A stretch of DNA of 64,000 nt from a bacterium (GTDB lineage: Bacteria > Myxococcota_A > Bradymonadia > UBA7976 > UBA1532). The stretch spans positions 1 to 64,000 of the forward strand of contig JAUHYW010000060.1 of assembly GCA_030426085.1 (NCBI GenBank). Reading direction: 5' to 3'. Shown here in pieces: positions 7,682 through 56,548 of this stretch; position 1 is the stretch's first letter; every line of letters begins with the position of its first letter. Made by a program: the position numbers and the translations under genes. The notes under the pieces were generated by a model. It saw nothing but the letters and a program-made list of their open reading frames with translations. It did not search any database and was not told the DNA's origin.

Positions 7682-8281
7682 ATGGCAGTCCACGTCAAGA
7701 TCCTGATCGTCGACGATGACCGGGACATCTGCGAATACATGACCACGATGCTGGAGACCACCGGCTACGAGGTCTCCACGCTGTCCGACCCCACCAAGGC
7801 GGTCGACGCGATCCGCAACGACGAGTTCCACCTGCTCATCGTCGACCTGATGATGCCCCGGATGGACGGCATCGAGCTGATCCAGCACATCCGCAAGGTC
7901 GACAGCGACGTCGCCATCGTGGTCTTCACCGGCTACCCCTCGGTCGAGACGGCGGTCGACGCGCTGAAGCTCAACGTCTCGGACTATGTCAAAAAGCCCT
8001 TCGACATCAACGAGTTCCGCGAGAAGATCGCCCTGATCCTCAAGAAGAAGGGCCTGCTGACCAACCCCGAGGAGGAGCTGCACAAGGCGGTGGGCAAGAC
8101 CATCCGCCGCATCCGCAAGGAGCACGGGCTGACCCTCAAGCAGCTCTCCCGCCGCACCAGCCTCTCGGTCAGCCTGCTCAGCCAGATCGAGCGGGCCGAG
8201 TCCAGCGCGTCGGTCAGCTCGCTGTACAAGATCGCGGTGGCGCTCGGGGTCCGGCTGACGACGCTCTTCGGCGAGTTCTGA
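7682..8281 (+). CDS. Response regulator: receiver domain fused to XRE/Cro-type HTH
   Basis: ILIVDDDRDICEYM...LLIVDLMMPRMDG...VVFTGY is a REC domain with phospho-acceptor Asp. The C-terminus KEHGLTLKQLSRRTSLSVSLLSQIERAESSASVSSLYKIAVALGV is an HTH_XRE. Confidence 0.8.
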   Translation: MAVHVKILIVDDDRDICEYMTTMLETTGYEVSTLSDPTKAVDAIRNDEFHLLIVDLMMPRMDGIELIQHIRKVDSDVAIVVFTGYPSVETAVDALKLNVSDYVKKPFDINEFREKIALILKKKGLLTNPEEELHKAVGKTIRRIRKEHGLTLKQLSRRTSLSVSLLSQIERAESSASVSSLYKIAVALGVRLTTLFGEF

Positions 8282-11382: not shown

Positions 11383-12713
11383 TGGGGGTCGATCTGCCCG
11401 GTCCCCGGGGCACGCTGCGCCCGCTGCTGGCGTTCAACGCCGATCCGGTCGGCTGCCTGCGGCGGTGGCACGCCGAGTTCGGGGACGTCGTCGGGCTGCG
11501 GATCGCCTCGATCCAGTTGGTGTCGCTGCGGGGCGCCGACGACGTGGCGGCGGTGCTGCTCGACCGGCAGCAGGCGTTCGTCAAGGACGCCTTCACCCGC
11601 GGGCTGTCCCGGGTCCTGGGGCAGGGGCTCCTGACCAGCGAGGGGGCCCACTGGCGCGGGCGGCGCAAGCTCATCGCGCCGACGCTGCGCCGGTCCCACA
11701 TCCGTCATTACGCCGAGGTCTTCGTGGCCCACGCCCGCCGCTGGGTCGAGCGGGTCGAGGGCGAGGTCGACCTGCACCACGAGATGATGGGCCTGACCCT
11801 GGGCATCGTCGCCGAGGGGCTGTTTGCCGCCGAGCAGGCGGCCGACGTCGATCGGGTGGGCGCGCTGGTCGAGCAGATCATGGCGGCCCACATCCAGACC
11901 GAGCGGAGCTGGCAGATGGTGCTGCCGGCGTGGCTGCCGCTCTCCCCGAAGTGGCGCATCGATCGGGCGGCGGCGGGGGTGACCGCGCTGATCGATCGGC
12001 TGATCGCCGAGCGGCGGTCCCGGCCCCCGGGCGACGATCTGCTGTGGCGGCTGCTCGAGGCCCGGGGCGAGGGCGGGCACGCGCTCGACGCCGAGGGGCT
12101 GCGCGACGAGTCGGCGACGCTGTTTCTGGCGGGGCACGAGACGACCGCCCTGGCGCTGACGTTCGCGGTGGAGCTGCTCGGGCGCCACCCGGACGCGATG
12201 GGCCGGCTGCGGGCCGAGGTGGCCGCGCTGGGCGACCGCCTGCCGACGGCCGACGACATGCCGGCCCTGGCCTGGACCGCGGCGGTAATCAAGGAGGCGA
12301 TGCGGCTCTACCCGCCGGCGTGGGTCATCGGCCGGGAGTCGGTGAAGCCGGTGGCGATCGGCGAGCACACGCTGCCCGCGGGGGCGACGGTGCTGGTCCC
12401 GATCGACGCGATGCACCGGGACCCGGCCCGCTTCCCCGACCCGGGGGTCTTCCGCCCCGAGCGCTGGCTCGACGGCGCGCCGCGCGGCCGCTGGGACTAC
12501 CTGCCGTTCGGCGGCGGGGCCCGGGTGTGCGTGGGCAACCACTTCGCGCTGATGGAGGCGGTGCTGGTGCTGGCCACGATGGTCCGGGGGGCCCGCTTCG
12601 AGCTGCTGCGCCCGACGCCGCCCCGCCTGATGGCCTCGATCACCCTTCGTCCGGTGGACGGTCTGCCGGTCCGGGTGACTCGAACACCCGCCGGGGCCGC
12701 AGGCTGCGAATGA
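11382..12713 (+). CDS. Cytochrome P450
   Basis: Heme-binding loop FGGGARVCVGNHFA (FxxGxRxCxG). ETxR-like EAMRLYPP. 443 aa. ATG overlaps the upstream stop (TGATG). Confidence 0.85.
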   Translation: MGVDLPGPRGTLRPLLAFNADPVGCLRRWHAEFGDVVGLRIASIQLVSLRGADDVAAVLLDRQQAFVKDAFTRGLSRVLGQGLLTSEGAHWRGRRKLIAPTLRRSHIRHYAEVFVAHARRWVERVEGEVDLHHEMMGLTLGIVAEGLFAAEQAADVDRVGALVEQIMAAHIQTERSWQMVLPAWLPLSPKWRIDRAAAGVTALIDRLIAERRSRPPGDDLLWRLLEARGEGGHALDAEGLRDESATLFLAGHETTALALTFAVELLGRHPDAMGRLRAEVAALGDRLPTADDMPALAWTAAVIKEAMRLYPPAWVIGRESVKPVAIGEHTLPAGATVLVPIDAMHRDPARFPDPGVFRPERWLDGAPRGRWDYLPFGGGARVCVGNHFALMEAVLVLATMVRGARFELLRPTPPRLMASITLRPVDGLPVRVTRTPAGAAGCE

Positions 12714-12903
12714 CGACCTCGGCGTGCGCGTCGGGGGTGTCGCACCACGCCGCGTGGTGCAGCGGGCTGTAGCCCTCGGTGCCGGTGACGCAGCCGTCGA
12801 GCCCCTCCCGCCGGATGAACTCGTCGACGTGGCGCCGGAAGTGCTCGGCGGTGCCCGCCGCCTGCCCCCCGGTGAAGTCCCAGTAGAAGCGTCGCATGAT
12901 CAT
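12640..12903 (-). CDS. Small hypothetical ORF (87 aa), convergently overlapping the P450 3' end
   Basis: MIMRRFYWDFTGG...HFRRHVDEFIRREGLDGCV. No recognisable family. Could be spurious in high-GC DNA. Confidence 0.25.
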   Translation of the reverse strand: MIMRRFYWDFTGGQAAGTAEHFRRHVDEFIRREGLDGCVTGTEGYSPLHHAAWCDTPDAHAEVVIRSLRPRRVFESPGPADRPPDEG

Positions 12904-13003
12904 CTGATGCCCCGGTGCGCCGCTTCGGCGCAACTGCGCTCTTTCGGTGCACCACGATCGGGCATCGGGGCGCCGGCTGCGCCGCTCTGGCGGGCGCTGC
13001 GGG

Positions 13004-13018
13004 TGGCACGGCGGTTGC
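13004..13018 (+). promoter_or_regulatory. Sigma-54 (RpoN) -24/-12 promoter element TGGCAC-N5-TTGC
   Basis: tggcacggcggttgc matches consensus GG-N10-GC exactly. It lies ~35 nt upstream of the MVP-like ATG, with GGAGG RBS at 13042..13046. Confidence 0.45.
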
Positions 13019-13052
13019 GAATCGGGGTTGGCACCACCGAGGAGGCATTCCG

Positions 13053-15413
13053 ATGGACAACCGCCGTGAACGGGAGCTGGTGCTGGCCCCCAACGAATAC
13101 GCCTACGTGCTCGACACCACCAAGGGCCACATCAACTGCTATGTGGGCCCCAACAAGACCAGCCTGGCCCAGACCGACCAGCCGGTGGTGTTCAACAGCG
13201 GCTCGAAGCGCTTCGAGCCGGCGGTGCTCGAGGACGCGGTGCGCCTCTTCGCCACCGCCCCGGCCAACTGGTACATCGCGCTGAAGAACCCCGCCCGCGA
13301 CCGGGTGCACCCCAACCCGGGGGTGGCCAGCGTGGCCCCCGAGCTGCTCGTCGGGCTCAAGCACAACGTGCCGGGGCCGGCGGCGTTCGCCCTGTGGCCG
13401 GGGCAGATGGCGCGGGTGATCGAGGGCCACCGGCTGCGGGCCGACGAGTACCTCTACGTGCGCATCTACGACGCCGGGGCCGCCGCCGAGGCCGGCTGGC
13501 GGGCGCTGGGGCTGGCCGACGACCACGCCGAGCAGCCGCCCCGGTTCGCGGTGGGCCAGGGCTACGTGATCAAGGGCACCGACACCCGGTTCTACATCCC
13601 GCCGACCGGGGTCGAGGTCGTGCCCGAGGACGGGGGGAACTTCGTGCGGGCGGCGGTGCGGCTCGAGCGGCTGGAGTACTGCGTGCTGGTGGGCCACGAC
13701 GGCCAGCGGCGCACCATCCGGGGCGAGGCGATCGTCTTCCCCGGGCCCGACGAGCGGTTCGTGGTGCGCGAGGGGCGGCGCAAGTTCGAGGCGATCGAGC
13801 TCAGCGAGACCACCGGGCTGCACGTCAAGGTCACCGCGCCCTACACCGAGGCCGACGGCACCGCGCGCCGGGAGGGCGAGGAGCTGTTCATCACCGGCAG
13901 CGGGGTCATCTACTTCCCCCGCGACGCGCACGCGATCATCCGCCAGGGGGGCCGGGCGCTGCACCAGGCGGTGGCCATCCCCCGGGGCGAGGGGCGCTAC
14001 GTGCTGAGCCGGCACACCGGCGAGGTGGCGCTCAAGCGGGGGCCGGCGATGTTCCTGCCCGACCCCCGCCACGAGGTGATCATCCGCCGGGTGCTCGACG
14101 ACCGGGAGTGCGCGCTGCTCTTCCCGGGCAACCCCGACGCGCGGGCCTTCGGCCGGGCGGACGGGCGGCGGCCGGCGGCCGAGCCGAAGCCGGGGCGCAA
14201 GAGCCGGGGCGAGGGCGGGTCGGGCGCGCCGCTGGCGGTGGTCCGGCCGGCGTTCGAAGGGCCCCGCACGATCACCCTCGACACCCGCTACGCGGGCGCG
14301 GTGCGGGTCGACGTGCGGGCCGGCTTCGCGGTGCAGGTGGTCGACCAGAGCGGCGCCCGGCGGGTCGAGCAGGGGCCGACGGCGCTGTTGCTGGGCTACG
14401 ACGAGATGCTCCAGCCGCTGACGCTGTCCACCGGCACCCCCAAGTCCGACGCCCGCCGGCTGGAGACCGCCTACTTGCAGACCACCGGCAACAAGGTCGG
14501 CGACCGGCTGCTGCTGGTGACCCGGGATCAGGTCCGGGCCGAGCTGACCCTGGCCTATCGGGTCGACTTCGACGGCCCGCCCGAGCGGTGGTTCGCCGTC
14601 GAGGACTACGTCAAGCTGCTGTGCGACCACGCCGGCTCGATGATCAAGGCCCGGGCCCGCAAGCTGGACGTCGTGGCGTTGCAGGGCGACCTGACCCCGG
14701 TGGTGCGGGATCTCATCCTGGGGCCCCGGGGCGAGGGCGGCGAGCGGCCGGGGCTGGGGTTCTCCGAGAACGGCATGCGGGTCTACGACGTGGAGGTGCT
14801 CGCGCTCGAGATCGTCGACGAGGCGGTGCGGGCGCTGCTCGACGAGGCTCAGCTCGACGCGATGCAGCAGGCGCTGGCGGTGGGCGCCCGGGAGGCCGAG
14901 GTGGCCCGCCGACAGCGGCTGGAGGACGCCGAGCGGGCGCTGGATCGGGCGCTGGACGAGACCGCCGCGCTGCGGGCGGGCATCGCCGCCGAGCAGGCCC
15001 GCCGGGGCCATACCGAGGCCACCGCCGAGCGGGAGCGGCGGCTGGCCCTGGCCCGGATGGAGGCCGAGCAGGACCGGCTCGAGCTGGAGGCCGAGCTGGC
15101 GCTGCGGGCCCGGCGGCTGGCGGCAGAGGAGGCCGAGGACGCCGCCCGGCTCGAGAGCCGGCGGGCGAAGCAGGCGCTCGACCTGGAGGCGCTCGCCGCC
15201 CGGGTCGAGGGCGCGGTGCGGGCGGCGCAGGCGTTCGACCCCCACGTCGTGCACGCGGTCAACCGCCTCGGCGACCAGCAACTCGCCGCCGCCCTGGCCG
15301 AGAACTTCGGCGAGCTGGCGGCGGTGGAGGGCCGGGGGCTCTTGGAGACCGCCCGCAAGTTCCTCGACTTCGTGCCCGCCAGCCTCATGCCCCAGCTCCG
15401 CGAGCCGGGCTGA
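13053..15413 (+). CDS. Major vault protein (MVP) homolog: MVP repeat domains + SPFH-like shoulder + coiled-coil cap-helix
   Basis: N-terminus LAPNEYAYVLDTTKGHINCYVGPNKTSL... parallels MVP repeat 1 ([26 protein letters not shown]). Shoulder region LAYRVDFD...FAVEDYVKLLCDHAGSMIKARARKLDVVAL parallels MVP LAYNWHFE...[27 protein letters not shown]. The C-terminal ~150 aa is an Ala/Arg/Glu-rich coiled coil like the vault cap-helix. Confidence 0.75.
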   Translation: MDNRRERELVLAPNEYAYVLDTTKGHINCYVGPNKTSLAQTDQPVVFNSGSKRFEPAVLEDAVRLFATAPANWYIALKNPARDRVHPNPGVASVAPELLVGLKHNVPGPAAFALWPGQMARVIEGHRLRADEYLYVRIYDAGAAAEAGWRALGLADDHAEQPPRFAVGQGYVIKGTDTRFYIPPTGVEVVPEDGGNFVRAAVRLERLEYCVLVGHDGQRRTIRGEAIVFPGPDERFVVREGRRKFEAIELSETTGLHVKVTAPYTEADGTARREGEELFITGSGVIYFPRDAHAIIRQGGRALHQAVAIPRGEGRYVLSRHTGEVALKRGPAMFLPDPRHEVIIRRVLDDRECALLFPGNPDARAFGRADGRRPAAEPKPGRKSRGEGGSGAPLAVVRPAFEGPRTITLDTRYAGAVRVDVRAGFAVQVVDQSGARRVEQGPTALLLGYDEMLQPLTLSTGTPKSDARRLETAYLQTTGNKVGDRLLLVTRDQVRAELTLAYRVDFDGPPERWFAVEDYVKLLCDHAGSMIKARARKLDVVALQGDLTPVVRDLILGPRGEGGERPGLGFSENGMRVYDVEVLALEIVDEAVRALLDEAQLDAMQQALAVGAREAEVARRQRLEDAERALDRALDETAALRAGIAAEQARRGHTEATAERERRLALARMEAEQDRLELEAELALRARRLAAEEAEDAARLESRRAKQALDLEALAARVEGAVRAAQAFDPHVVHAVNRLGDQQLAAALAENFGELAAVEGRGLLETARKFLDFVPASLMPQLREPG

Positions 15414-15596
15414 TCGGCCCGGCGGGGCCCGACACCCGCAAATGCTCTTCGGTTGACGGGACAAGTGGTGTCCGCCGCCGGTCATCCGTTACATTCCTCA
15501 TATGCTGGCTCGGGCGCGGCGGCTGCCCGTCCGGCCGGAGGATGGAGCGCAAGGGGAGTGATGCAGGGCGGAGAGCATGCCCGCGGCGGCAGGAAG

Positions 15597-18500
15597 ATGG
15601 CGGCGCTGGCGCTGGCGATGGTCGGCCTGGCGCTGGGCTGCGGGGATCCCGAGGCCCTGGACCCGCCGCTCGAGCCCGACGCGGCGCTGTGCGGTTCGGG
15701 CTTCGACACGGTCGGCGATGAGTGCGTCGACATCGACGAGTGCGCGGCCGACCCCGGCCCGTGCGACGCGCGCACCACCTGCATCAACCTGCGCGGCGGC
15801 TTCTCGTGCGGCGCGTGCCCCGAGGGCTACGTGGGCGACGGGCTCGTCGACGGCGAGGGGTGCACCCTCGACTGCCCGCCGGGGCAGGCCGACGGCGGCG
15901 GCGGGCGGTGCGCGCCCCGGGGCACCTGCAATCCGGGCTACGAGCCGGGCCCCGACGGCGGCTGCGCGCCGCTGCAATGCCCGCCCGATCAGCACTTCGA
16001 CGGGGCCGAGGGCTGCGTGCCGCTCGGCGAGTGCGCCCCGGGGTTCGCGCCGGACGACGCGGGGGACTGCGTGGCCGGGCCGTGCCCCGCCGGTGAGCAC
16101 GACGACGGGACCGGGGCCTGCGCGCCGGAGGGCGAGTGCGCCGAGGGCTACCGGCTCGACGCGGCCGGCGACTGCGCGCCGCTGCCCGAGTGCCCCGAGG
16201 GCGAGCACCCGATCGGCGACGGGTCGTGCGGCCCCGCGGGCACCTGCGTCGATGGCTACGCGCTCGACGCCCAGGGCGACTGCCGCCCGCTGAGCTGCCC
16301 CGAGGACGACCCCCGCGAGCCGGACGACACCCCCGCCGAGGCCGACCCGCTGACCCCCGACGAGGCGGTGATCGGCGTCGCCTGCCCCGATGATCCGGAT
16401 CACTTCGCGCTGGACCCCGGCGCCCGCTGCCGGGTGGTGGCGGCCCTCACGGCGGTGGGATCCGAGCCGCTCGAGGCCGCGCTGACCCTGGTCGACGAGG
16501 GCGGGCGGCTGCTGACCGACGCCCCGGGGGGCGAGGCCCGCCTCGAGGTGGCCGGGCCGCTCTTCGCGGCGGTCGCGGGGGCCGGGCTGTACCGATTGCA
16601 GGTGCGATTCGAGGGCCACGATGGGGGCGACGGGGCCTGCGTCGAGCTCGGCGTGTGCTCTCCGGGCTACGCCGAGGACGACGCCGGGGCCTGCACGCGG
16701 TGCGCGGCCGGCTTCCGTGATGGGGGCGGCGGGGCCTGCGTGCCGCTGGGGGCCTGCGCGCCGGGCTTCGCGCTCGACCTGGACGGGTCGTGCCGGCAGA
16801 CGGCCGCGTGCCCGCCCGGCGCCCGGGACGACGGGGCCGGCGACTGCGCGCCCGACGGCGACCCCTGCGCCCCGGGCTTCGGCGACGACGGGGCCGGCGG
16901 CTGCGCCCCGCCGGGGGTCTGCGCGGCGGGCTTCGTGCTCGACGTGCTCGACCGCTGCCGGATGGCGACCGCGTGCCCCGTCGGCGAGCGCGACACCGGG
17001 GACGGCGCGTGCGGCGGGCCGTGCGCGTCGGGCTATCACGGCGGGGGCGGCGAGCCCGGGATCTGCCTGCCGGCGGGCGACTGCGCGCCGGGCTGGGTCG
17101 AGCGGGGGGACGGGACCTGCGACCGGGCCTGCCTCGGCGGCCTGGAGCGGGCCGGCGCGGTCTGTGTCGAGGACTTCACCTGCCCGGCGGACGACGGGAC
17201 CGAGGTGGACGAGCCGCGGGAGCTGAGCCCGGGGGCCAGCAAGTACGGGGTCGTGTGCCCGGGGGACGCCGACCGCTTCCGCCTCGCGCCGCCCACCGGC
17301 TGCGGGGTGCGCTTCATCTTGCGCTTCGACCCCGCCGAGGGGCCGCTGGTGCTCGAGGTCGGGGCCGAGGCGGCGCCGGCGACCGGCCGGGACGCGCCCG
17401 AGGGGCAGCGGCTGGTCGTCGAGGGGGTCGTCGGGCCGCTGGCGGTGCGGGTCCGGGGGGCCGACGACGAGGCCGGGGCCCGCTACGCGCTGCGGGTCGA
17501 CCTCGACGGCCACGACGGGGGCGACGGGACCTGCCAGCCGCTGGGGGCCTGCGCGGTGGGCTACGCGCTCGCGGCGGACGACAGCGGGGCCTGTGATCGC
17601 TGCGCGCCGGGCTTCGAGGACGGGGACGGCGGCGCGCCGGGCGTCGTCTGCGTGCCCGAAGGGGACTGCGCCGAGGGCTTCCACGACGGCGGCGACGGCG
17701 TCTGCGTGCCGGACGATCGCTGCGCGCCGGGCTTCGCGGACGGGGACGGCGACCGCCCGGGCATCGTCTGCGTGCCCGAGGGCACCTGCGCGGCGGGCTT
17801 CCACGACGGGGGCGACGGGGGCTGCGTGCCGGTCGACGCCTGCGCCGAGGGCTTCCACGACGGCGACGGCGCGGGCCCGGGCACCGTCTGCGTGCCCGAG
17901 GGGGCGTGCAGCGCGGGCTTCCACGACGGCGGCGACGGGGGCTGCGTGGCCCGGGGCGACTGCGCCGAGGGCTTCCACGACGGCGACGGCGCGGGGCCCG
18001 GCGACCGCTGCCTGCCGACGGGCGCGTGCCTGCGCGGGTGGCACGACGGGGGCGACGGGGTGTGCGTCGAGCGGGGGCTGTGCCGCGAGGGCTACCTCGA
18101 CCGGGGCGACGGGGTGTGCGTCGAGAACCTCTTGTTCGGCACCGTCTGCGCGCCGGGCCGGGGCTTCGCCTTCGAAGACGGCGGGGTCTGCGTCTGCAAC
18201 GAGGGCACCCGCGACGGGGGCGACGGGCGCTGCGTGCCGGAGGGCGCCTGCTCGCCCGGCTTCCGCCCCGACGCGCCGGAGACCGACGATCAGGGCGAGG
18301 CGCCGGCCTGCGCCCCGGTCGGGATCTGCGCCGCGGGGCACCACTCGACGCCGTGGGGGGCGTGCCGACCGACGGCGGCCTGCCCCGCGGGCGAGCGGGA
18401 CGACGGCATCGGGGCCTGCGTGCCCGAGGTGGCCGGCTGCGCCGACGGGTTCGCCGTCCGGGGCGAGGTGTGCGCCGCGCCGCCGGCCTGCGGGCCGGGG

Positions 18501-19736
18501 CACCACGACGCCGGCGACGGGACCTGCGCCCCGATCGGCGGCTGCGCCGACGGATTCCGACCGTCGGCGGCGGGCTGCGTGCCCCAGGGCCCGTGCAGCC
18601 CGCCCTCCGACTTCGCCGCCGGGCCCCCGATCGAGGTGGGGCCGCCGGTGGCCGGGGTGGCCTGCGGGCCGGACGTCTGGCGCTTCGACACCCCCCGGGG
18701 CTGCGGGGTCGAGGCCCGGCTGGTGGCCGATCCGGCGGCCGGCGCGGTCGACCTCGAGCTGTTCGACGCCGACGAGGCCCTGGTCGCGCGGGTCGAGGCG
18801 CTCGACGGCACCGCCCGCCTGTGGCTGCCGCCGGGCGAGCCCCGCCAGCTCCACCTGCGGGTGACGCCCTACCCCCCCGGCGCGGTCGATCCGGTGCCCT
18901 ATCGGCTGGCGCTCGTGGCCGATCCGCTGCGCTGCATGGCGGTCTGCCCGTTCGACCAGCGCCCCGACGGCGGCGGGCGCTGCGTGGACTTCGAGGCCGA
19001 CTGCGCCCCCGGCTGGCACGAGGGCGGGGACGGGGCCTGCGTGCCGCTCGATCGCTGCACCCCGGGCTTCCACGACGGGGGCGACGGGGTCTGCGTGCCG
19101 TTCGACGTCTGCCGCCCGGGGTATCGACTCACCGCCGAGCTGACCTGCGCCGCGGTCACCGCCGACTGTCCGCCGGGCGAGCGGGACAACGGCGGCGGTG
19201 TCTGCGCCCTCACCTGCGCCGTCGGGCAGGGCTACCACGAGGGCGGCGACGGCACCTGCGTGGCGACGCCCTACTGCGTGGCGGGCTACGCCGACGACGG
19301 CGGCGGGCTGTGCGTCGCCCGGACGCCGGAGGCCGAGTGCGCCCCGGACGTCTTCGAGGCCCGGCCCGACGGCGACGGCCTGTGCCTGCTGGTGCGCTGC
19401 ACCGACCTGGACGACGACACCGACGCGCTCGCCGAGGCGCTGCCGCTCGACGTGCGCCCCGGCGAGCCGACCGTGGTCTACGGGTCGCTGTGCCTGGCCG
19501 ACCCCGGCGACTGGTATCGGGTGGGCGGGGGCCACCTGCGGGCCCGCTTGCGCTTCGACCACGCCGACGGCGACCTGCGGCTGCGCTTCCTCGACGCCAA
19601 CGGGCTCGAGCTCGCCGCGGCCGACAGCGCCGATGACGACGAGGTGCTCGGGCTGCCCGGGGCCCCGGCCGAGGTCATCGTCGAGGTCACCGGGGAGAGC
19701 AGCGTCGGCTATCGGCTCGATCTGGTCCGGGATTGA
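15597..19736 (+). CDS. Giant Cys-rich repeat lipoprotein: lipobox, cbEGF-like domain, >40 Myxococcus-type Cys-rich repeats, four PPC-like beta-sandwich domains
   Basis: MAALALAMVGLALGC is a lipobox. CVDIDECAADPGPCDARTTCINLRGGFSCGACPEGY is a Ca-binding EGF. Repeated CxPGFxDGGDGxCVPxGxC units follow. There are four ~100-aa Cys-poor modules (e.g. GSLCLADPGDWYRVGGGHLRARLRFDHADGDLRLRFLDANG) with the D-x-D-x-Y/W-R PPC-like signature. Confidence 0.8.
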   Translation: MAALALAMVGLALGCGDPEALDPPLEPDAALCGSGFDTVGDECVDIDECAADPGPCDARTTCINLRGGFSCGACPEGYVGDGLVDGEGCTLDCPPGQADGGGGRCAPRGTCNPGYEPGPDGGCAPLQCPPDQHFDGAEGCVPLGECAPGFAPDDAGDCVAGPCPAGEHDDGTGACAPEGECAEGYRLDAAGDCAPLPECPEGEHPIGDGSCGPAGTCVDGYALDAQGDCRPLSCPEDDPREPDDTPAEADPLTPDEAVIGVACPDDPDHFALDPGARCRVVAALTAVGSEPLEAALTLVDEGGRLLTDAPGGEARLEVAGPLFAAVAGAGLYRLQVRFEGHDGGDGACVELGVCSPGYAEDDAGACTRCAAGFRDGGGGACVPLGACAPGFALDLDGSCRQTAACPPGARDDGAGDCAPDGDPCAPGFGDDGAGGCAPPGVCAAGFVLDVLDRCRMATACPVGERDTGDGACGGPCASGYHGGGGEPGICLPAGDCAPGWVERGDGTCDRACLGGLERAGAVCVEDFTCPADDGTEVDEPRELSPGASKYGVVCPGDADRFRLAPPTGCGVRFILRFDPAEGPLVLEVGAEAAPATGRDAPEGQRLVVEGVVGPLAVRVRGADDEAGARYALRVDLDGHDGGDGTCQPLGACAVGYALAADDSGACDRCAPGFEDGDGGAPGVVCVPEGDCAEGFHDGGDGVCVPDDRCAPGFADGDGDRPGIVCVPEGTCAAGFHDGGDGGCVPVDACAEGFHDGDGAGPGTVCVPEGACSAGFHDGGDGGCVARGDCAEGFHDGDGAGPGDRCLPTGACLRGWHDGGDGVCVERGLCREGYLDRGDGVCVENLLFGTVCAPGRGFAFEDGGVCVCNEGTRDGGDGRCVPEGACSPGFRPDAPETDDQGEAPACAPVGICAAGHHSTPWGACRPTAACPAGERDDGIGACVPEVAGCADGFAVRGEVCAAPPACGPGHHDAGDGTCAPIGGCADGFRPSAAGCVPQGPCSPPSDFAAGPPIEVGPPVAGVACGPDVWRFDTPRGCGVEARLVADPAAGAVDLELFDADEALVARVEALDGTARLWLPPGEPRQLHLRVTPYPPGAVDPVPYRLALVADPLRCMAVCPFDQRPDGGGRCVDFEADCAPGWHEGGDGACVPLDRCTPGFHDGGDGVCVPFDVCRPGYRLTAELTCAAVTADCPPGERDNGGGVCALTCAVGQGYHEGGDGTCVATPYCVAGYADDGGGLCVARTPEAECAPDVFEARPDGDGLCLLVRCTDLDDDTDALAEALPLDVRPGEPTVVYGSLCLADPGDWYRVGGGHLRARLRFDHADGDLRLRFLDANGLELAAADSADDDEVLGLPGAPAEVIVEVTGESSVGYRLDLVRD

Positions 19737-36158: not shown

Positions 36159-37253
36159 TCACGCCGCCTGTGGCTCGGGCCCCACGTAATGCGCCCGGGG
36201 GCGGATCAGCCGCGCCTCGCGGCGCTGCTCGAGGACGTGCCCCAGCCAGCCCACCACCCGACCGCAGGCGAAAAGCGGGGTGAAGTCGCGGCGGTCGATG
36301 CCGATCGCGTCGAGGATGACCGCGGTCATGAACTCCACGTTGGCCGCCAGCGCCCGATCTGGATGGCGGGCCTTCAACAGCGCGGTCGCCTCGGCCTCGA
36401 CGGCCGCCGCCAGCGCCAGCCGATCGCGCGCCCGCCCGGCCTCGGCCAGCTTCGCGACCCCCGCCTCGAGCACCGCCGCCCGGGGGTCGCGCACCCGGTA
36501 GACCCGGTGGCCCATACCCATGATGCGCCGGCCGGCGGCCAGCTCGGCCTCCAGCCACGCCCGGGCCCGCGCCCGATCGGGCGACCCGATCGCGTCGAGC
36601 ATGTCGAGCACCGGCCCCGGCGCGCCCCCGTGCAGCGGGCCCTTGAGCGCGCCGAGCGCCGCGACCACCGCCGAGACCGCGTCCGATCCGGTCGAGGTCA
36701 CCACCCGGGCGGTGAAGGTCGAGGCGTTCATGCCGTGGTCGACCACCGTCACCAGATAACGCCGCAGCGCGTCGGCCGACGTCTCGTCGGCTCGACCGGT
36801 GAACAGCCGCAGCAGATCGGCGGCGTGCGGCGCGGCCGGGTCAGGGACCAGCGGCTCGAGGCCGCGGCGCAGCCGGGACTGCGCCGCGGCGAAGACCGCG
36901 ACCGCCCCGGCGATCGTGGGCAGCTCGGCCTCGGCCGCGTCCGGCGCCCCGCCGTCCAGGTGCCCGACGGCGGCCCGCAGCGCGTCCATGCCGTCCGCCG
37001 CCCGCAGCGCGTCGCCCAGCGCGGGCAGCATCTCGTGGGCCGCAGCCCGGGCCGCGCCCAGCCGGTGCTCGATGGCCGGCCCCGCGCCGCGGTCGCCGCG
37101 CCACATCAACCCGCACACCTCACCGAGAGACGCCGCCTCGGCGAGCGCCTCCACCCGGTGCCCGCGCAGCACCAGCGCGCCCGCGTCGCCGTCCACCCGG
37201 CTCAGCGTCGTCTCGGTGACGACGATCCCCTGCAATCCGCTCGCGATCTTCAT
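36159..37253 (-). CDS. Citrate synthase (short, CitA/archaeal-type) family protein
   Basis: GPLHGGA, GMGHRVYRVRDPR and DPNVEF-type motifs. ATG at 37253 with GGAGG RBS. The track ORF extends to a GTG at 37280. Confidence 0.8.
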   Translation of the reverse strand: MKIASGLQGIVVTETTLSRVDGDAGALVLRGHRVEALAEAASLGEVCGLMWRGDRGAGPAIEHRLGAARAAAHEMLPALGDALRAADGMDALRAAVGHLDGGAPDAAEAELPTIAGAVAVFAAAQSRLRRGLEPLVPDPAAPHAADLLRLFTGRADETSADALRRYLVTVVDHGMNASTFTARVVTSTGSDAVSAVVAALGALKGPLHGGAPGPVLDMLDAIGSPDRARARAWLEAELAAGRRIMGMGHRVYRVRDPRAAVLEAGVAKLAEAGRARDRLALAAAVEAEATALLKARHPDRALAANVEFMTAVILDAIGIDRRDFTPLFACGRVVGWLGHVLEQRREARLIRPRAHYVGPEPQAA

Positions 37254-37300
37254 GACGGCCTCCAACGTGACGCTGGACACCGTAGCGGGGGCTCTATAGA

Positions 37301-37326
37301 TTGATCAACGTTGATTCAACAATCAA
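37301..37326. promoter_or_regulatory. AT-rich palindromic operator candidate (ttgatcaacgttgattcaacaatcaa) in a divergent intergenic region
   Basis: Contains the perfect palindrome TTGATCAA plus overlapping TTGATTCAA/TTGAATCAA half-sites. It is the only AT-rich patch for kilobases, between two divergent citrate-synthase-family genes. Confidence 0.4.
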
Positions 37327-37344
37327 CCCGAAGAGGGGGATCCG

Positions 37345-38517
37345 ATGGCCGAGACGATCGACGCCCGACAGGCTGCCCGGCTGCTGGGGGTGCAGGTGCG
37401 CACGCTCTACGCCTACGTGAGCCGGGGGCGGCTGGAGAGCCTGCCCGGTCCGGGGCGGGCGAAGCGCTATCGGCGGGCCGACATCGAGCGTCTGCGGCGC
37501 AACCGGGAGGGGGTCGACGCCGCGTTGAGCTGGGGGCAGCCGGTGCTCGAGTCGGCGATCACCGAGATCACCGCCGAGGGCCCGGTCTACCGGGGGCACC
37601 CGGCGATCGGGCTGGCCGAGCGGGGGGCGGCTTTCGAGGCGGTGGCCGAGCTGCTGTGGACCGGCGCGCAGCCGGCGGGGCGGCCGTCCTGGGTCGCGGG
37701 CGCCGAGCCGTCGACGCCGCCGCTCCCGCCCGACGCCGATCCCCTCGCCCGGCTGGCGCTGCTGGTGCCGTGGATGGCGGTGCACGACCCGGGGCGCTTC
37801 AACCGGCGGCCGGCGGCGGTGATCGATCGGGCGCGGCGCGTCATCCGGCGCATGGCCCACGCCCTGGGCCCGCCGGAGCGCCCGACGCCCGGGGCGGGGA
37901 CGGTCGCCGAGCGCCTGGCGGTCGGGTGGGCCGGCCGCCCCGAGGCCGCGGCGGCGCTGGACGCGGCGTTGATCCTGTGGGCCGACCACGAGCTGAACGT
38001 GTCGTCGTTCGCCGCGCGGGTGACGGCCTCGGCTCAGGCCGATGTCTACGCCTGCGTCTCGGCCGGTCTGGCGGCGCTCAGCGGGCCGCGCCACGGCACC
38101 CACTGCGAGCGGGTGGGCGCGCTGGTGGCCGAGATCGGCCGCCCCGAGCGGGCCGAGGCGGTGGTGCACGCCCGCATCCGCCGGGGCGAGGCGCTGCCCG
38201 GCTTCGGCCACCCGCTGTACCCCGCCGGTGATCCCCGCGCGGCCGCCCTGCTGGGGGTGGCGCGGACGCTGGGCACGCCGCCCCGGGTCGAGGCGGCCCT
38301 GGCGCTCATCGAGGTCGCCGCCCGCGAGCTGGAGGCGGCGCCGAACATCGACCTGGGCCTGATCGCGCTGACCGAGGCCCTGGGGCTGCCCCCCCGGGAG
38401 GCGCCGGGCCTGATCGCGGTCGGGCGGACGGCGGGCTGGGTGGCCCACGCGCTGGAGCAGTACGCATCGGGCGCTCTCATCCGGCCCCGGGCGCGGTTCG
38501 TCGGGGGGAGCGGCTGA
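37345..38517 (+). CDS. Excisionase/MerR-type HTH DNA-binding domain fused to a citrate-synthase-like domain (putative metabolite-sensing transcription factor)
   Basis: N-terminus ARLLGVQVRTLYAYVSRGRLESL is an HTH_17/excisionase-type. Remainder ...LWADHELNVSSFAARV...GPRHGTHCE...GFGHPLYPAGDPRA... is the citrate synthase small/large-domain core. Confidence 0.75.
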   Translation: MAETIDARQAARLLGVQVRTLYAYVSRGRLESLPGPGRAKRYRRADIERLRRNREGVDAALSWGQPVLESAITEITAEGPVYRGHPAIGLAERGAAFEAVAELLWTGAQPAGRPSWVAGAEPSTPPLPPDADPLARLALLVPWMAVHDPGRFNRRPAAVIDRARRVIRRMAHALGPPERPTPGAGTVAERLAVGWAGRPEAAAALDAALILWADHELNVSSFAARVTASAQADVYACVSAGLAALSGPRHGTHCERVGALVAEIGRPERAEAVVHARIRRGEALPGFGHPLYPAGDPRAAALLGVARTLGTPPRVEAALALIEVAARELEAAPNIDLGLIALTEALGLPPREAPGLIAVGRTAGWVAHALEQYASGALIRPRARFVGGSG

Positions 38518-53071: not shown

Positions 53072-53898
53072 GCCGCGACCTCGAATCGCTGCGCCCCCGG
53101 GCCTCGATGTGGGTCGCGGTGGGCATCGGCTCGCTGCTGCTGCACGGGGGGGTCGCCGCGGGGCTGTCGAGCTACGAGCCGCCGCCGCCGCCGCCGGTGG
53201 TCGTGCCGGTCGAGGTCCGGGTCATCGAGGCCCCGCCCCCGCCGCCGCCGAAGCCGCCCGAGCCGGAGAAGCCGCCCGAGCCGCCGCCGCCCGAGCCGGA
53301 GAAGCCCCGGGAGGCGGTGAAGCAGAAAGATCCGCCGCCGCCGCCGAAGAAGAAGCCCCGGCGCCGGAAGCCGAAGAAGCCGAAGCCGCCGAAGCCCGAT
53401 CCGGCGCCACCGCCGGCCCAGCCGAAGGCCGACGCGCCGACCGAGCCTCCGCTGATGATGGGGCTGGAGTTCGAGGGGCTCGCCACGAGCAAGACCGGGG
53501 TCGCGGTGCCGCAGGGCGCAGCCGACGGGGCCCGGGACGGGGCGGTGGACGGCACCGGCCGCAAGGGCCCCCGGGCGCCGACCGAGCCGGGGGCCGGCGA
53601 CGCCGAGGAGACGGTGCCGGTGGCCGGGGTCACGACGCTGCCCCGCCTCATCCGGGAGGTGAAGCCCGACTTCCCCGACGCGCTGAAGCGGCGCGGCGTC
53701 GAGGGCAAGGTGGTGCTGACCCTCGAGATCGGCTCCGATGGGCGGGTGCGCAAGGCCCGGGTGGTCGCCCGGCTGCACCCCGAGCTGGACAAGCTCGCCC
53801 GTCGGGCGGCGCTGAAGCTGCGTTTCGAGCCGGCAAAAGTCAGGGGGACGCCGGTCGCGGTGAACCTGCCATATACGTTCTACTTCGTCATCGATTGA
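53068..53898 (+). CDS. tonB: TonB energy transducer
   Basis: TM anchor, long (EP/KP) proline-rich spacer, C-terminal TonB_C (KVVLTLEIGSDGRV...). Confidence 0.8.
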   Translation: MSRDLESLRPRASMWVAVGIGSLLLHGGVAAGLSSYEPPPPPPVVVPVEVRVIEAPPPPPPKPPEPEKPPEPPPPEPEKPREAVKQKDPPPPPKKKPRRRKPKKPKPPKPDPAPPPAQPKADAPTEPPLMMGLEFEGLATSKTGVAVPQGAADGARDGAVDGTGRKGPRAPTEPGAGDAEETVPVAGVTTLPRLIREVKPDFPDALKRRGVEGKVVLTLEIGSDGRVRKARVVARLHPELDKLARRAALKLRFEPAKVRGTPVAVNLPYTFYFVID

Positions 53899-53914
53899 CG
53901 CCCCGAGGCTTCGT

Positions 53915-56548
53915 TTGACCCGCCGTCCGCCGCTCGCGCGCGCTTTGATCTGGGCCGCGCTGCTCGCCTTCCCGCTGTCGGCCACGGCCCAGGACCGCCC
54001 GGGCCCGCCCCCCGAGCCCGCCGCCGAAGCGCCCCCGAAGAAGCCCGAGCTCACCAAGGCCCCCCAGCTCGTGACCTACGTCGACCCGGTCTACCCCGAG
54101 GCGGCCGAGGCCGAGAAGCTCGAGGCCGAGGTGAAGGTGATCCTGACGCTGTCGGCCGAGGGCCTGGTGACCGAGGTCCAGCCGCCCGACCCCCCGGTGG
54201 GCCACGGCTTCGACGAGGCGGCGGTGGCCGCCGCGAAGCAGCTCGTCTTCACCCCGGGCGAGATCGACGGGGTGCCGGCCCCCATCCGGGTGCCGTTCAA
54301 GTACACCTTCCAGTTCGTGCCCGATCCGGTGCAGGTCGAGGCGCCCGAGCCGGAATACGGCCGGGTCGTGGGCCGGGTGCGGGAGCAGGGGACCCGGCTG
54401 CCCCTGCCGGCGGTGCCGGTGAGCGTCGGCGAGCGGGAGGTCATCTCGGACGAGAGCGGCCGCTTCGCCATCGACGAGGTGCCCCCCGGGGACTACGAGC
54501 TGGTGGCCACCTCGGTCGACCACCGCCGGCAGCGGGTGCCGGTGACCCTCGCCGCCGGCGAGGAGGTCGAGGTCGACCTGCGGCTCGAGCGGCTGCGCAG
54601 CTCGCCCTACGAGACCATCGTGCGCGGCGACCGGGCCAAGACCAGCCTCACCCGGCGCACGCTGGAGAAGGACGCCCTGCGCACGGTGCCCGGCACCTTC
54701 GGCGACCCGCTGCGGGCGGTGATGAACCTGCCCGGTATGGCCCGCTCGCCGTACATCCTGGGGGTGCTGCTGGTGCGCGGCTCGACCCCCGGCGACTCGG
54801 CGGTGATGATCGACGGGCACGAGGTGCCGCTGCTGTTCCACTTCCTCGGCGGGCCCTCGGTGCTGCCCCCCGAGATGCTCGAGCGCATCGACTACTACCC
54901 GGGCAACTTCTCGGTGCGCTTCGGCCGGGCCATCGGGGGCGTCGTCGACGTGGGCACCCGCAAGACGACCTCCAAGCAGTGGCGGGGCAGCCTCGAGATC
55001 GACCTGTTCGACACCGGGCTGTACCTCGAGGGCCCGATCACCGACGACATCAGCTTCTCGGCGTCGATGCGCCGGAGCTACATCGATCTGGTCATCTCGG
55101 CGGTGTACGACGTCTTCGGGGTGCAGAGCGTGGGGCAGGTGCTGCCCCGGTACTACGACTATCAGGCCCGCCTCGACTGGCGGGTGAACAGCCACCACAG
55201 CCTGACCCTGCTCGCGTTCGGCTCGGACGACGACCTCGAGGTCATCGGCACCGCCGGCACCCAGACCGCCTACGACGTGACCGCCGGCATCGCCTTCCAC
55301 CGGGTCAAGCTCGACTGGCGGGCCCGGCTGAGCAAAGAGGTCGAGTTCACCCTCTCGCCGGTCATCGGCTTCAATACGCTGGGCTTCGAGGTGGGCGAGG
55401 TGCAGGTCGAGGCGCAGTTCACCGAGATGGCCCTGCGCTACGATCTGCGCATCCAGCCGGTGGACGATCTGGTGCTGCGCACCGGCTTCGACTCCCGGGT
55501 CCGGGTGGCCGACGGGATCGGCGCGATCCCGGTGCCGACCGGCGGCGGCCTGCGCCCGTTGCCGGGGGCCAACGTCGGCGAGTTGTCCCCGGTCGACCTC
55601 GAGCGCGATCTGGCCATCCTCGAGGGCGGGGTGTTCCTGGAGGCCGAGTGGCGCCCGTTCGGGGGCCCGGTCACCCTCATCCCCGGGGTGCGGACCGACC
55701 AGTACCAGTGGGTCGGCCGCTATCGGTGGTTCTTCGACCCCCGGGTCACCGCGCGCTGGACGCTCGACGAGGCCGGGGCGTGGACCCTCAAGGGCGGGGT
55801 GGGGCTGTTCAATCAGCCGCCGACCGAGCTGCGGCTCGACCCGGAGTTCGGCAACCCCGACCTCGAGCCGGAGTGGGCGATCCACTACGGGCTGGGGGTC
55901 GAGTACCAGATCACCGACGCGCTGAGCCTCGACGTGCAGGGCTTCTACATCGACCGCCGCGACCTGAGCGATCAGGTCGAGGGCTTCGAGGTCGAGGGGT
56001 TGAGCCTGACCGAGCCCAACTTCCGCAACATCGCCCGGGGCCGGGCCTACGGGCTGGAGCTGATGCTCAAGCACGAGGTGACCCGCGACGTCTACGGCTG
56101 GATCTCGTACACCCTCTCCCGCTCGGAGGAGGACGACGGGCCGGGCACCCCGATGACGGCGACGCCCTTCGACCAGACCCACAACCTGGTGGTGGTCGCG
56201 AGCTGGAAGTTCGCCCCCAACTGGGAGGCCGGGCTGCGCTTCCGGCTGGTGTCGGGCAACCTCGAGACCCCGGTCGTCGGCTCGACGTTCGACGCCGACG
56301 AGGGCTCGTACACCCCGATCGAAGGCGCCGAGGACAGCCAGCGGGTGGCCCCGTTCAACCAGCTCGACATCCGGCTGGAGCGCATCTGGGACTACGAGGT
56401 GTGGAATCTGGCGGCGTTCGTCGACCTGCAGAACATCTACAATGCGCTCAACCCCGAGGCGACTCGCTATGATTACCGCTACCGGGAGGCAGGCCCGCTG
56501 CCCGGCCTGACCGTCCTGCCGAGCCTCGGCCTGCGAGGGAGCTTCTGA
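53915..56548 (+). CDS. TonB-dependent receptor with N-terminal TonB_C-like domain and carboxypeptidase-regulatory-like domain (Oar-like architecture)
   Basis: Signal peptide, then YPEAAEAEKLEAEVKVILTLSAEGLV...PIRVPFKYTFQF (TonB_C-like). Then GRVVGRVREQGTRLPLPAVPVSV...GRFAIDEVPPGDYEL (CarbopepD_reg). Plug and 22-strand barrel follow, ending ...LRGSF. Confidence 0.85.
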   Translation: MTRRPPLARALIWAALLAFPLSATAQDRPGPPPEPAAEAPPKKPELTKAPQLVTYVDPVYPEAAEAEKLEAEVKVILTLSAEGLVTEVQPPDPPVGHGFDEAAVAAAKQLVFTPGEIDGVPAPIRVPFKYTFQFVPDPVQVEAPEPEYGRVVGRVREQGTRLPLPAVPVSVGEREVISDESGRFAIDEVPPGDYELVATSVDHRRQRVPVTLAAGEEVEVDLRLERLRSSPYETIVRGDRAKTSLTRRTLEKDALRTVPGTFGDPLRAVMNLPGMARSPYILGVLLVRGSTPGDSAVMIDGHEVPLLFHFLGGPSVLPPEMLERIDYYPGNFSVRFGRAIGGVVDVGTRKTTSKQWRGSLEIDLFDTGLYLEGPITDDISFSASMRRSYIDLVISAVYDVFGVQSVGQVLPRYYDYQARLDWRVNSHHSLTLLAFGSDDDLEVIGTAGTQTAYDVTAGIAFHRVKLDWRARLSKEVEFTLSPVIGFNTLGFEVGEVQVEAQFTEMALRYDLRIQPVDDLVLRTGFDSRVRVADGIGAIPVPTGGGLRPLPGANVGELSPVDLERDLAILEGGVFLEAEWRPFGGPVTLIPGVRTDQYQWVGRYRWFFDPRVTARWTLDEAGAWTLKGGVGLFNQPPTELRLDPEFGNPDLEPEWAIHYGLGVEYQITDALSLDVQGFYIDRRDLSDQVEGFEVEGLSLTEPNFRNIARGRAYGLELMLKHEVTRDVYGWISYTLSRSEEDDGPGTPMTATPFDQTHNLVVVASWKFAPNWEAGLRFRLVSGNLETPVVGSTFDADEGSYTPIEGAEDSQRVAPFNQLDIRLERIWDYEVWNLAAFVDLQNIYNALNPEATRYDYRYREAGPLPGLTVLPSLGLRGSF

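Follow-up and report, generated by a model that had tools for sequence, protein, structure and literature searches.

[quoted passage not shown] The genes and the elements found or predicted around them are as follows, with dyads scored out of 10 positions and given without strand.

12640 to 12903, minus strand: divergent small gene, 87 aa, from a gene call; GC3 of 0.98, no match in Pfam or NCBIfam and no assigned family
12916 to 12932: candidate enhancer dyad 1, TGCGCC-GCTTC-GGCGCA, a perfect 17-bp palindrome frame with NtrC-box geometry, 10/10
12935 to 12951: candidate enhancer dyad 2, TGCGCT-CTTTC-GGTGCA, 9/10
12948 to 12964: candidate enhancer dyad 3, TGCACC-ACGAT-CGGGCA, 9/10, overlapping dyad 2 by 4 nt
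12978 to 12994: weak promoter-proximal dyad, TGCGCC-GCTCT-GGCGGG, 8/10, tentative
13004 to 13018, plus strand: predicted sigma-54 −24/−12 promoter core, TGGCAC-GGCGG-TTGC, from an exact, unique match and conservation in orthologues
13029 to 13031 (about 13028 to 13032), plus strand: predicted transcription start, about 11 to 13 nt past the −12 GC, placed by sigma-54 geometry
13040 to 13045, plus strand: Shine-Dalgarno sequence AGGAGG, 7 nt 5′ of the ATG, with GGAG-type sites at the same place in orthologues
13053 to 15413, plus strand: gene for the MVP homolog, 786 aa, assigned by Pfam, alignment of solved chains and homologs
15561 to 19736, plus strand: gene for a giant cysteine-rich lipoprotein, 1391 aa, with an N-terminal EGF_CA domain as its sole Pfam domain and the lipobox LALGC

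What vaults do is, to our knowledge, not settled in eukaryotes and has not been studied at all in bacteria. The window protein had Pfam matches to MVP_shoulder (4.6e-15) and Vault_3 (at its cut-off), solved MVP chains aligned to its residues 217-724 with an E value of 5e-14, and 4473 homologs were retrieved at E≤1e-10, the majority of them in Myxococcota MAGs and metagenomes. Judged from its sequence, the protein has the repeat, shoulder and cap-helix architecture of the major-vault-protein family. Bacterial members of this same family, known from Myxococcales, Cytophagales and cyanobacteria, have already been described in silico in two papers (PMC3762200; bioRxiv 10.1101/872010), which treat sequence, structure and phylogeny only and describe no regulation. 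In the literature that we searched, 'vault', 'sigma-54' and 'myxococc' never appeared together in one paper. The class of promoter discussed below is textbook material; neither a bacterial vault-shell homolog as its target nor the conserved module found across the clade is described in that literature.

The original prediction was that an exact sigma-54 promoter motif, TGGCAC-N5-TTGC, stands about 35 nt before the MVP start codon with a GGAGG ribosome-binding site (RBS) in between, and inspection of the sequence confirmed it. The plus strand reads TGGCACGGCGGTTGC at 13004-13018, with the GG at 13005-13006 and the GC at 13017-13018 at a spacing of exactly 10 nt. The element is intergenic, lies on the coding strand, and is separated from the ATG at 13053 by 34 nt that include the AGGAGG sequence. 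When compared with the extended sigma-54 consensus quoted from PMC9765219, TGGCACG-N4-TTGC(T/A), it fits at 11 of 12 positions (TGGCACG-GCGG-TTGCG), the exception being −11, which is G and not T/A.

How often such a motif would arise by chance was estimated in the window itself. The exact motif occurs once in the 64 kb, counting both strands, where 0.13 occurrences are expected, and when one mismatch is allowed there is still one match, against 3.0 expected. A lone exact match in sequence of 74% GC is only mildly unlikely and is weak evidence by itself; its significance comes from its position and from conservation in orthologous loci. The motif could then be a chance look-alike, with MVP read from an unrecognised sigma-70 or ECF-type promoter. 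The sigma-54 consensus is itself GC-rich, and at least one exact match turned up in 13 of 100 dinucleotide-preserving shuffles of the window. A sigma-70-like promoter scan of 12500-13300 found none, which counts for little, as myxobacterial sigma-70 promoters diverge from the E. coli consensus. The comparison of orthologous loci below bears on this reading.

In sigma-54 promoters, the start site lies about 12 nt past the GC. With the start placed accordingly near 13030, the predicted 5′ untranslated region is about 23 nt long and shows no stable structure (leader fold z = +1.6). A search of 12600-15700 against Rfam gave no match at E≤1, and an RNA element or structured leader was rejected on these two results. 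A second TGGCAC at 13029-13034, 25 nt 3′ of the first, overlaps the predicted start and is followed by no correctly spaced TTGC; it is not conserved in the closest relative, and was rejected as a part of the promoter. GGCAC pentamers 23-25 nt downstream are also present in loci L002, L011 and L018. Across the window as a whole, near-consensus sigma-54 motifs are rarer than expected, with 28 matches at up to two mismatches against 49 ± 8, and all of the 100 shuffles had at least 28. This scarcity could reflect selection against spurious sites, or an effect of codon usage that the shuffles do not model.

We then compared the MVP upstream regions of 160 loci, 80 from species-representative genomes and 80 from metagenomes. 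They were divided by the N-terminus of the protein. The close clade consists of high-GC Myxococcota whose MVP has the N-terminus ...RERELVLAPNE and, in most cases, shares more than 50% identity with the window protein; the distant clade, with ...RERDLVLAPNE, includes Nannocystis, Enhygromyxa, Polyangia, Bacteroidia and others. Each locus was given a promoter score out of 10, that of the best sigma-54-like match within 110 nt 5′ of MVP, with the GG and GC cores required. A score of at least 8 was reached on the plus strand by 17 of 20 close-clade genome loci and on the minus strand by none of the 20, and by none of 40 distant-clade loci with GC≥0.65. Random windows from the close-clade loci reached it in 2.6% of cases, and a score of 9 in 0.5%. 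An independent set, the metagenome close-clade loci L083-L092, gave 8 of 10. The lineages are related, so that these counts overstate independence, and for the tests described below the loci were grouped by eye into about 19-22 lineages.

The conserved element also has the internal pattern of a sigma-54 promoter. Where it is present in the close clade, the GG-N10-GC element lies on the same strand as MVP, mostly with 26-63 nt between the GC and the ATG. Among 26 unique promoters, the position −20, which had not been scored, is G in 23, completing TGGCACG; the spacer from −19 to −16 varies freely, whereas A/T is enriched at −11 to −9 against a background of about 70% GC. A variable spacer together with G at −20 and A/T at −11 to −9 is the pattern of sigma-54 recognition and not of blanket conservation. 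In the closest relative of the window (L001, MAG JAUHXC01), GGCACGGCGGTTGCGA is the longest perfectly conserved intergenic block, and its flanks carry indels: alignment of L001:5880-5990 with window 12960-13052 places two insertions in L001, one of 22 nt just 5′ of the block, on the side of the dyad array, and one of 16 nt just 3′ of it, ahead of the RBS. With position and strand kept in 25 of 30 close-clade loci against the 2.6% background, with a conservation pattern specific to sigma-54 and a block invariant between the window and L001, and with the promoter co-occurring with upstream dyads only at MVP, we consider a chance look-alike very improbable, and prefer to read the element as a sigma-54 promoter.

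A conserved gene neighbourhood was looked for and rejected, as none extends beyond L001. The genes next to MVP are common to the window and L001 only, and no other gene is conserved beside MVP across the clade. Since the flanking genes are shared with L001 alone, the promoter element belongs to, and travels with, the MVP gene. Several members of the close clade have a weak module or none (L010, L015, L016, L018, L089/90, and the low-GC L093, L094 and L127). The last three, with a GC content of 40-43%, have the RERELVLAPNE N-terminus, yet neither the sigma-54 element nor the dyads, and the module is thus not universal for this protein subtype.

Sigma-54 promoters of this kind depend on an enhancer-binding protein (EBP), and the original prediction had proposed a search upstream for inverted repeats to which it binds. 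Such repeats proved to be present, as an NtrC-box-like array that recurs across the clade in helical phase. In the window, dyads 1, 2 and 3 are centred about 106, 87 and 74 nt 5′ of the predicted start site. The published NtrC box is TGCACCAnnnTGGTGCA, a 17-bp palindrome TGCACC-N5-GGTGCA (PMC8743547; PMC4987338). Against this strict consensus the best window dyad scores 10/12, and it scores 10/10 when positions 4 and 14 are treated as degenerate (TGCNCC-N5-GGNGCA). The window dyads would accordingly qualify as NtrC boxes in geometry and only partly in the sequence of their half-sites, while the dyad of locus L013 fits TGCACCAnnnTGGTGCA at 12/12. In promoter-anchored sequences the dyad spacers are often rich in A/T.

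By count, the relaxed dyad is not enriched in the window, where 8 matches with at most one mismatch compare with 8.9 expected by chance; three of the eight, including the only perfect one, fall within 12916-12964. Dyad 1 is the sole 10/10 match in the window and is conserved in L001. The pattern had been spotted by eye before testing, and the strict consensus used in the test was taken from the literature. In 19 lineages the best upstream dyad was set against random windows of the same loci and proved significant in most of them, with a Fisher p over all lineages of 1.5e-7 under the strict NtrC consensus and of 1.2e-10 when positions 4 and 14 were relaxed. Unbiased k-mer enrichment 5′ of the promoter reached at best p of about 1e-4 uncorrected, and nothing survived correction for multiple testing. 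Counting the half-site GGYGCR by itself gave no consistent positions, and it took scoring of the complete 17-bp dyad for the signal to emerge.

Within 200 nt 5′ of MVP, 19 of 27 close-clade loci have a dyad scoring 9/10 or more, and none of the 65 distant-clade loci with GC≥0.6 does; such dyads arise at a background rate of 1e-4 per nt. Several dyads precede most promoters, and their offsets, measured from the T of the −24 TGGCAC, recur at −88/−89, −68/−69, −56/−58, −45 and about −26. The −88/−89 offset, that of dyad 1, recurs in at least 10 lineages; the −68/−69 offset of dyad 2 recurs in the L004 group, L088 and L017, and the −56/−58 offset of dyad 3 in L002, the L005 group, L084 and L091. 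The weak proximal dyad has counterparts at −24 to −27 in L004, L091 and L092; in L001, with its 22-nt insertion, the counterpart lies at −48. When the best-dyad offsets of 15 lineages were tested for periodicity, the peak was at 10.8 bp (R = 0.78; permutation p = 4e-4 over periods 8-14), and the p value becomes 0.023 once identical offsets are collapsed. The dyad array of L001 is shifted by 22 nt relative to that of the window, equal to two helical turns, so that phasing is preserved.

The specificity of the composite module, which is present for example in the MAGs JAUHXC01 (L001), JACKDL01 (L002) and JACKEV01 (L019), was determined by a blind scan of 1.72 Mb on both strands for a promoter score of at least 8 with a dyad of at least 9 at 30-125 nt upstream. 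This gave 21 matches, and all 21 lie directly 5′ of MVP on the coding strand, in a sequence set that does not include glnA or amtB loci. One locus outside the close clade has both parts of the module. L125 (metagenome contig Ga0066636_10016900, 220-300) is the only distant-clade MVP locus with a sigma-54-like element, TGGCATTCGGCTTGC, and also the sole one with an NtrC-box-like dyad, 60 nt 5′ of TGGCATTCGGCTTGC; with a GC content of 0.54 it falls outside the 65 loci counted above. Its module was either gained independently or transferred.

The dyads might alternatively bind a conventional dimeric repressor or activator that is not an EBP, possibly serving the divergent 87-aa gene. Many HTH regulators typically have palindromic sites of this size, no EBP gene is linked to MVP, and the start codon of the 87-aa gene is only 13 nt from dyad 1, so that its own promoter must overlap the putative enhancer. 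Among the compared loci, however, the 87-aa gene is found only in the window lineage (L081/L082) and L001, where its protein counterpart is 75% identical, whereas the dyads are clade-wide. The dyads also stand at fixed distances from, and in helical phase with, the −24 element, have the geometry of the NtrC box (PMC8743547), and occur only where a sigma-54-like element is present, even in the lone distant-clade case of L125. On this evidence we judge a non-EBP regulator improbable, and favour the dyads as sites of an EBP; EBP binding at dyad 1 could then also affect the 87-aa gene. The 87-aa gene overlaps the 3′ end of a convergent P450 gene by 74 nt, and further upstream of it lie the P450 gene, a 224-aa ORF, an MMPL transporter and a regulator with receiver and HTH_3 domains.

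We searched for the activator and for RpoN in the window and around the other MVP genes. In six-frame translation the window has no match to GAFTGA, to the EBP Walker A motif or to ESELFGH, and Pfam searches of about 30 window ORFs gave no Sigma54_activat and no RpoN domain. The response regulator at 7682-8281 was considered as a linked activator and rejected, for it consists of a receiver and HTH_3 with no AAA+ domain. Among the 160 loci, an EBP gene lies within 5-6 kb of MVP in one, the distant-clade L057, and tblastn of its EBP against the window and the 160 loci recovered only itself. EBP-motif matches in L001 and L011 were spurious, the ORF in L011 not being an EBP. EBPs are reported to be numerous in Myxococcota (PMC12316311), and the presence of rpoN in the source organism was assumed from the same phylum-level knowledge. 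In M. xanthus, sigma-54 targets are commonly unlinked to the gene of their EBP (PMC9765219).

The original prediction had also raised the possibility that the promoter serves the lipoprotein gene. In that case MVP and lipoprotein would form one sigma-54 operon, and the lipoprotein would be the co-regulated partner that matters for function. A spacer of 147 nt separates the two genes, which share a strand; no terminator was found between them by pattern, and the fold of the spacer is no better than that of shuffles. The pairing is kept in L001, where the lipoprotein has a 51% identical counterpart. Against this, the lipoprotein gene follows MVP only in the window lineage (L081/L082) and L001, no lipoprotein lies 3′ of MVP in any of the other lineages that carry the module, and in the L004 group MVP is followed by a convergent gene. 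The spacer between the two genes, in a genome of 74% GC, also contains an A/T-rich block of about 45 nt (15462-15505), conserved with L001 as ACAAGTGGTGTCCG...TCATCCGTTACATTCCTCATATG, with a −10-like TACATT at 15490-15495. This block may be a separate promoter or operator of the lipoprotein gene, and it suggests that the lipoprotein has its own promoter. The lipoprotein gene may be co-transcribed with MVP, but a single operon with the lipoprotein as its relevant partner we hold to be rather unlikely. The lipoprotein itself is made up of dozens of short Cys-rich repeats (C..G..DGG.G.C.P-like), interspersed with three or four copies of a beta-rich module that ends in 'YRL...'.

The sequence elements, their conservation, their specificity for the region upstream of MVP and the helical phasing of the dyads were all computed here, and from them we infer sigma-54 binding, EBP binding, the start site and signal dependence. 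The 149-nt region between the 87-aa gene and MVP is, with good confidence, an enhancer-dependent sigma-54 promoter. Sigma-54 RNA polymerase would bind the −24 GG and −12 GC at 13004-13018 and be held there as a closed complex. An NtrC-family EBP, encoded elsewhere in the genome, would bind the 17-bp dyads TGCNCC-N5-GGNGCA, and on activation by its signal would oligomerise, loop to the polymerase and open the promoter using ATP. Transcription would begin near 13030 and pass through the short unstructured leader and the strong RBS into the MVP ORF. The MVP homolog is thus probably turned on by a signal and not expressed constantly. The control by sigma-54 and an EBP that had been proposed for it gains support from the orthologue conservation, the GGCACGGCGGTTGCGA block and the dyad array.

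The closest known systems are promoters of the glnAp2 type in E. coli and Salmonella, which are activated by NtrC via multiple upstream boxes without IHF. In glnAp2, the strong NtrC sites are located at −140 and −108, whereas the window dyads lie nearer the promoter, with centres at about −106, −87 and −74. Both have the same −24 GG/−12 GC core (TGGCACG-N4-TTGC), and glnAp2-type promoters likewise have several upstream 17-bp dyads with the geometry TGCACC-N5-GGTGCA (PMC8743547; PMC4987338), with sites about whole helical turns apart and no obvious A/T-rich IHF site between enhancer and promoter. The window promoter differs in its host, a high-GC Myxococcota lineage, in the degenerate positions 4 and 14 of the half-sites in its clade (TGCNCC/GGNGCA), and in its target, which is an MVP/vault-shell homolog and not a nitrogen-assimilation gene. 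It is conceivable, although we think it unlikely, that the dyads are true NtrC boxes and that the vault homolog belongs to the nitrogen-limitation (NtrBC) regulon of the clade. If this were true, a physiological cue would for the first time have been linked to a bacterial MVP, and the link would fit the old idea of vaults as stores or sequesters of amino acids or nutrients (bioRxiv 10.1101/872010).

Promoters of Myxococcus xanthus under Nla28, Nla6 and other activators (PMC9765219) belong to the same phylum and share the consensus TGGCACG-N4-TTGC(T/A). For NtrC-like activators of M. xanthus, as at the window MVP, the EBP is usually unlinked to its target. The sites differ, those of Nla28 being tandem 8-bp repeats CT(C/G)CG(C/G)AG and those of the window 17-bp palindromes, and in M. 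xanthus many of the sigma-54 promoters lie inside genes and far upstream, whereas the window promoter is intergenic and 34 nt from the ATG. The M. xanthus promoters are tied to starvation, development and defence-related genes (PMC9765219); a developmental or stress programme may be the context of the MVP promoter too.

A conserved enhancer-dependent promoter would mean that a bacterial vault gene is turned on by a specific signal via one activator. The module would then offer a route to when bacteria make vault-like shells, by way of the activator that binds TGCNCC-N5-GGNGCA and then of its sensor. The compact composite signature of a −24/−12 element with phased dyads can also be searched for genome-wide, leading to the rest of the regulon.

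Otherwise the window has the gene content of an ordinary chromosome, with genes for IleRS, citrate synthases, PntB, a TRAP transporter, a Ser/Thr kinase, a TonB-dependent receptor and a histidine kinase fragment. Two genes of the citrate-synthase family are divergent, at 37315-38517 on the plus strand and 36159-37304 on the minus strand, and one of the two has the unusual architecture of an N-terminal HTH_17/MerR-type domain fused to the citrate synthase domain. The plus-strand ORF at 53864-56548, of 894 aa, combines TonB_C, CarboxypepD_reg, Plug and a TonB-dependent-receptor barrel in one protein.
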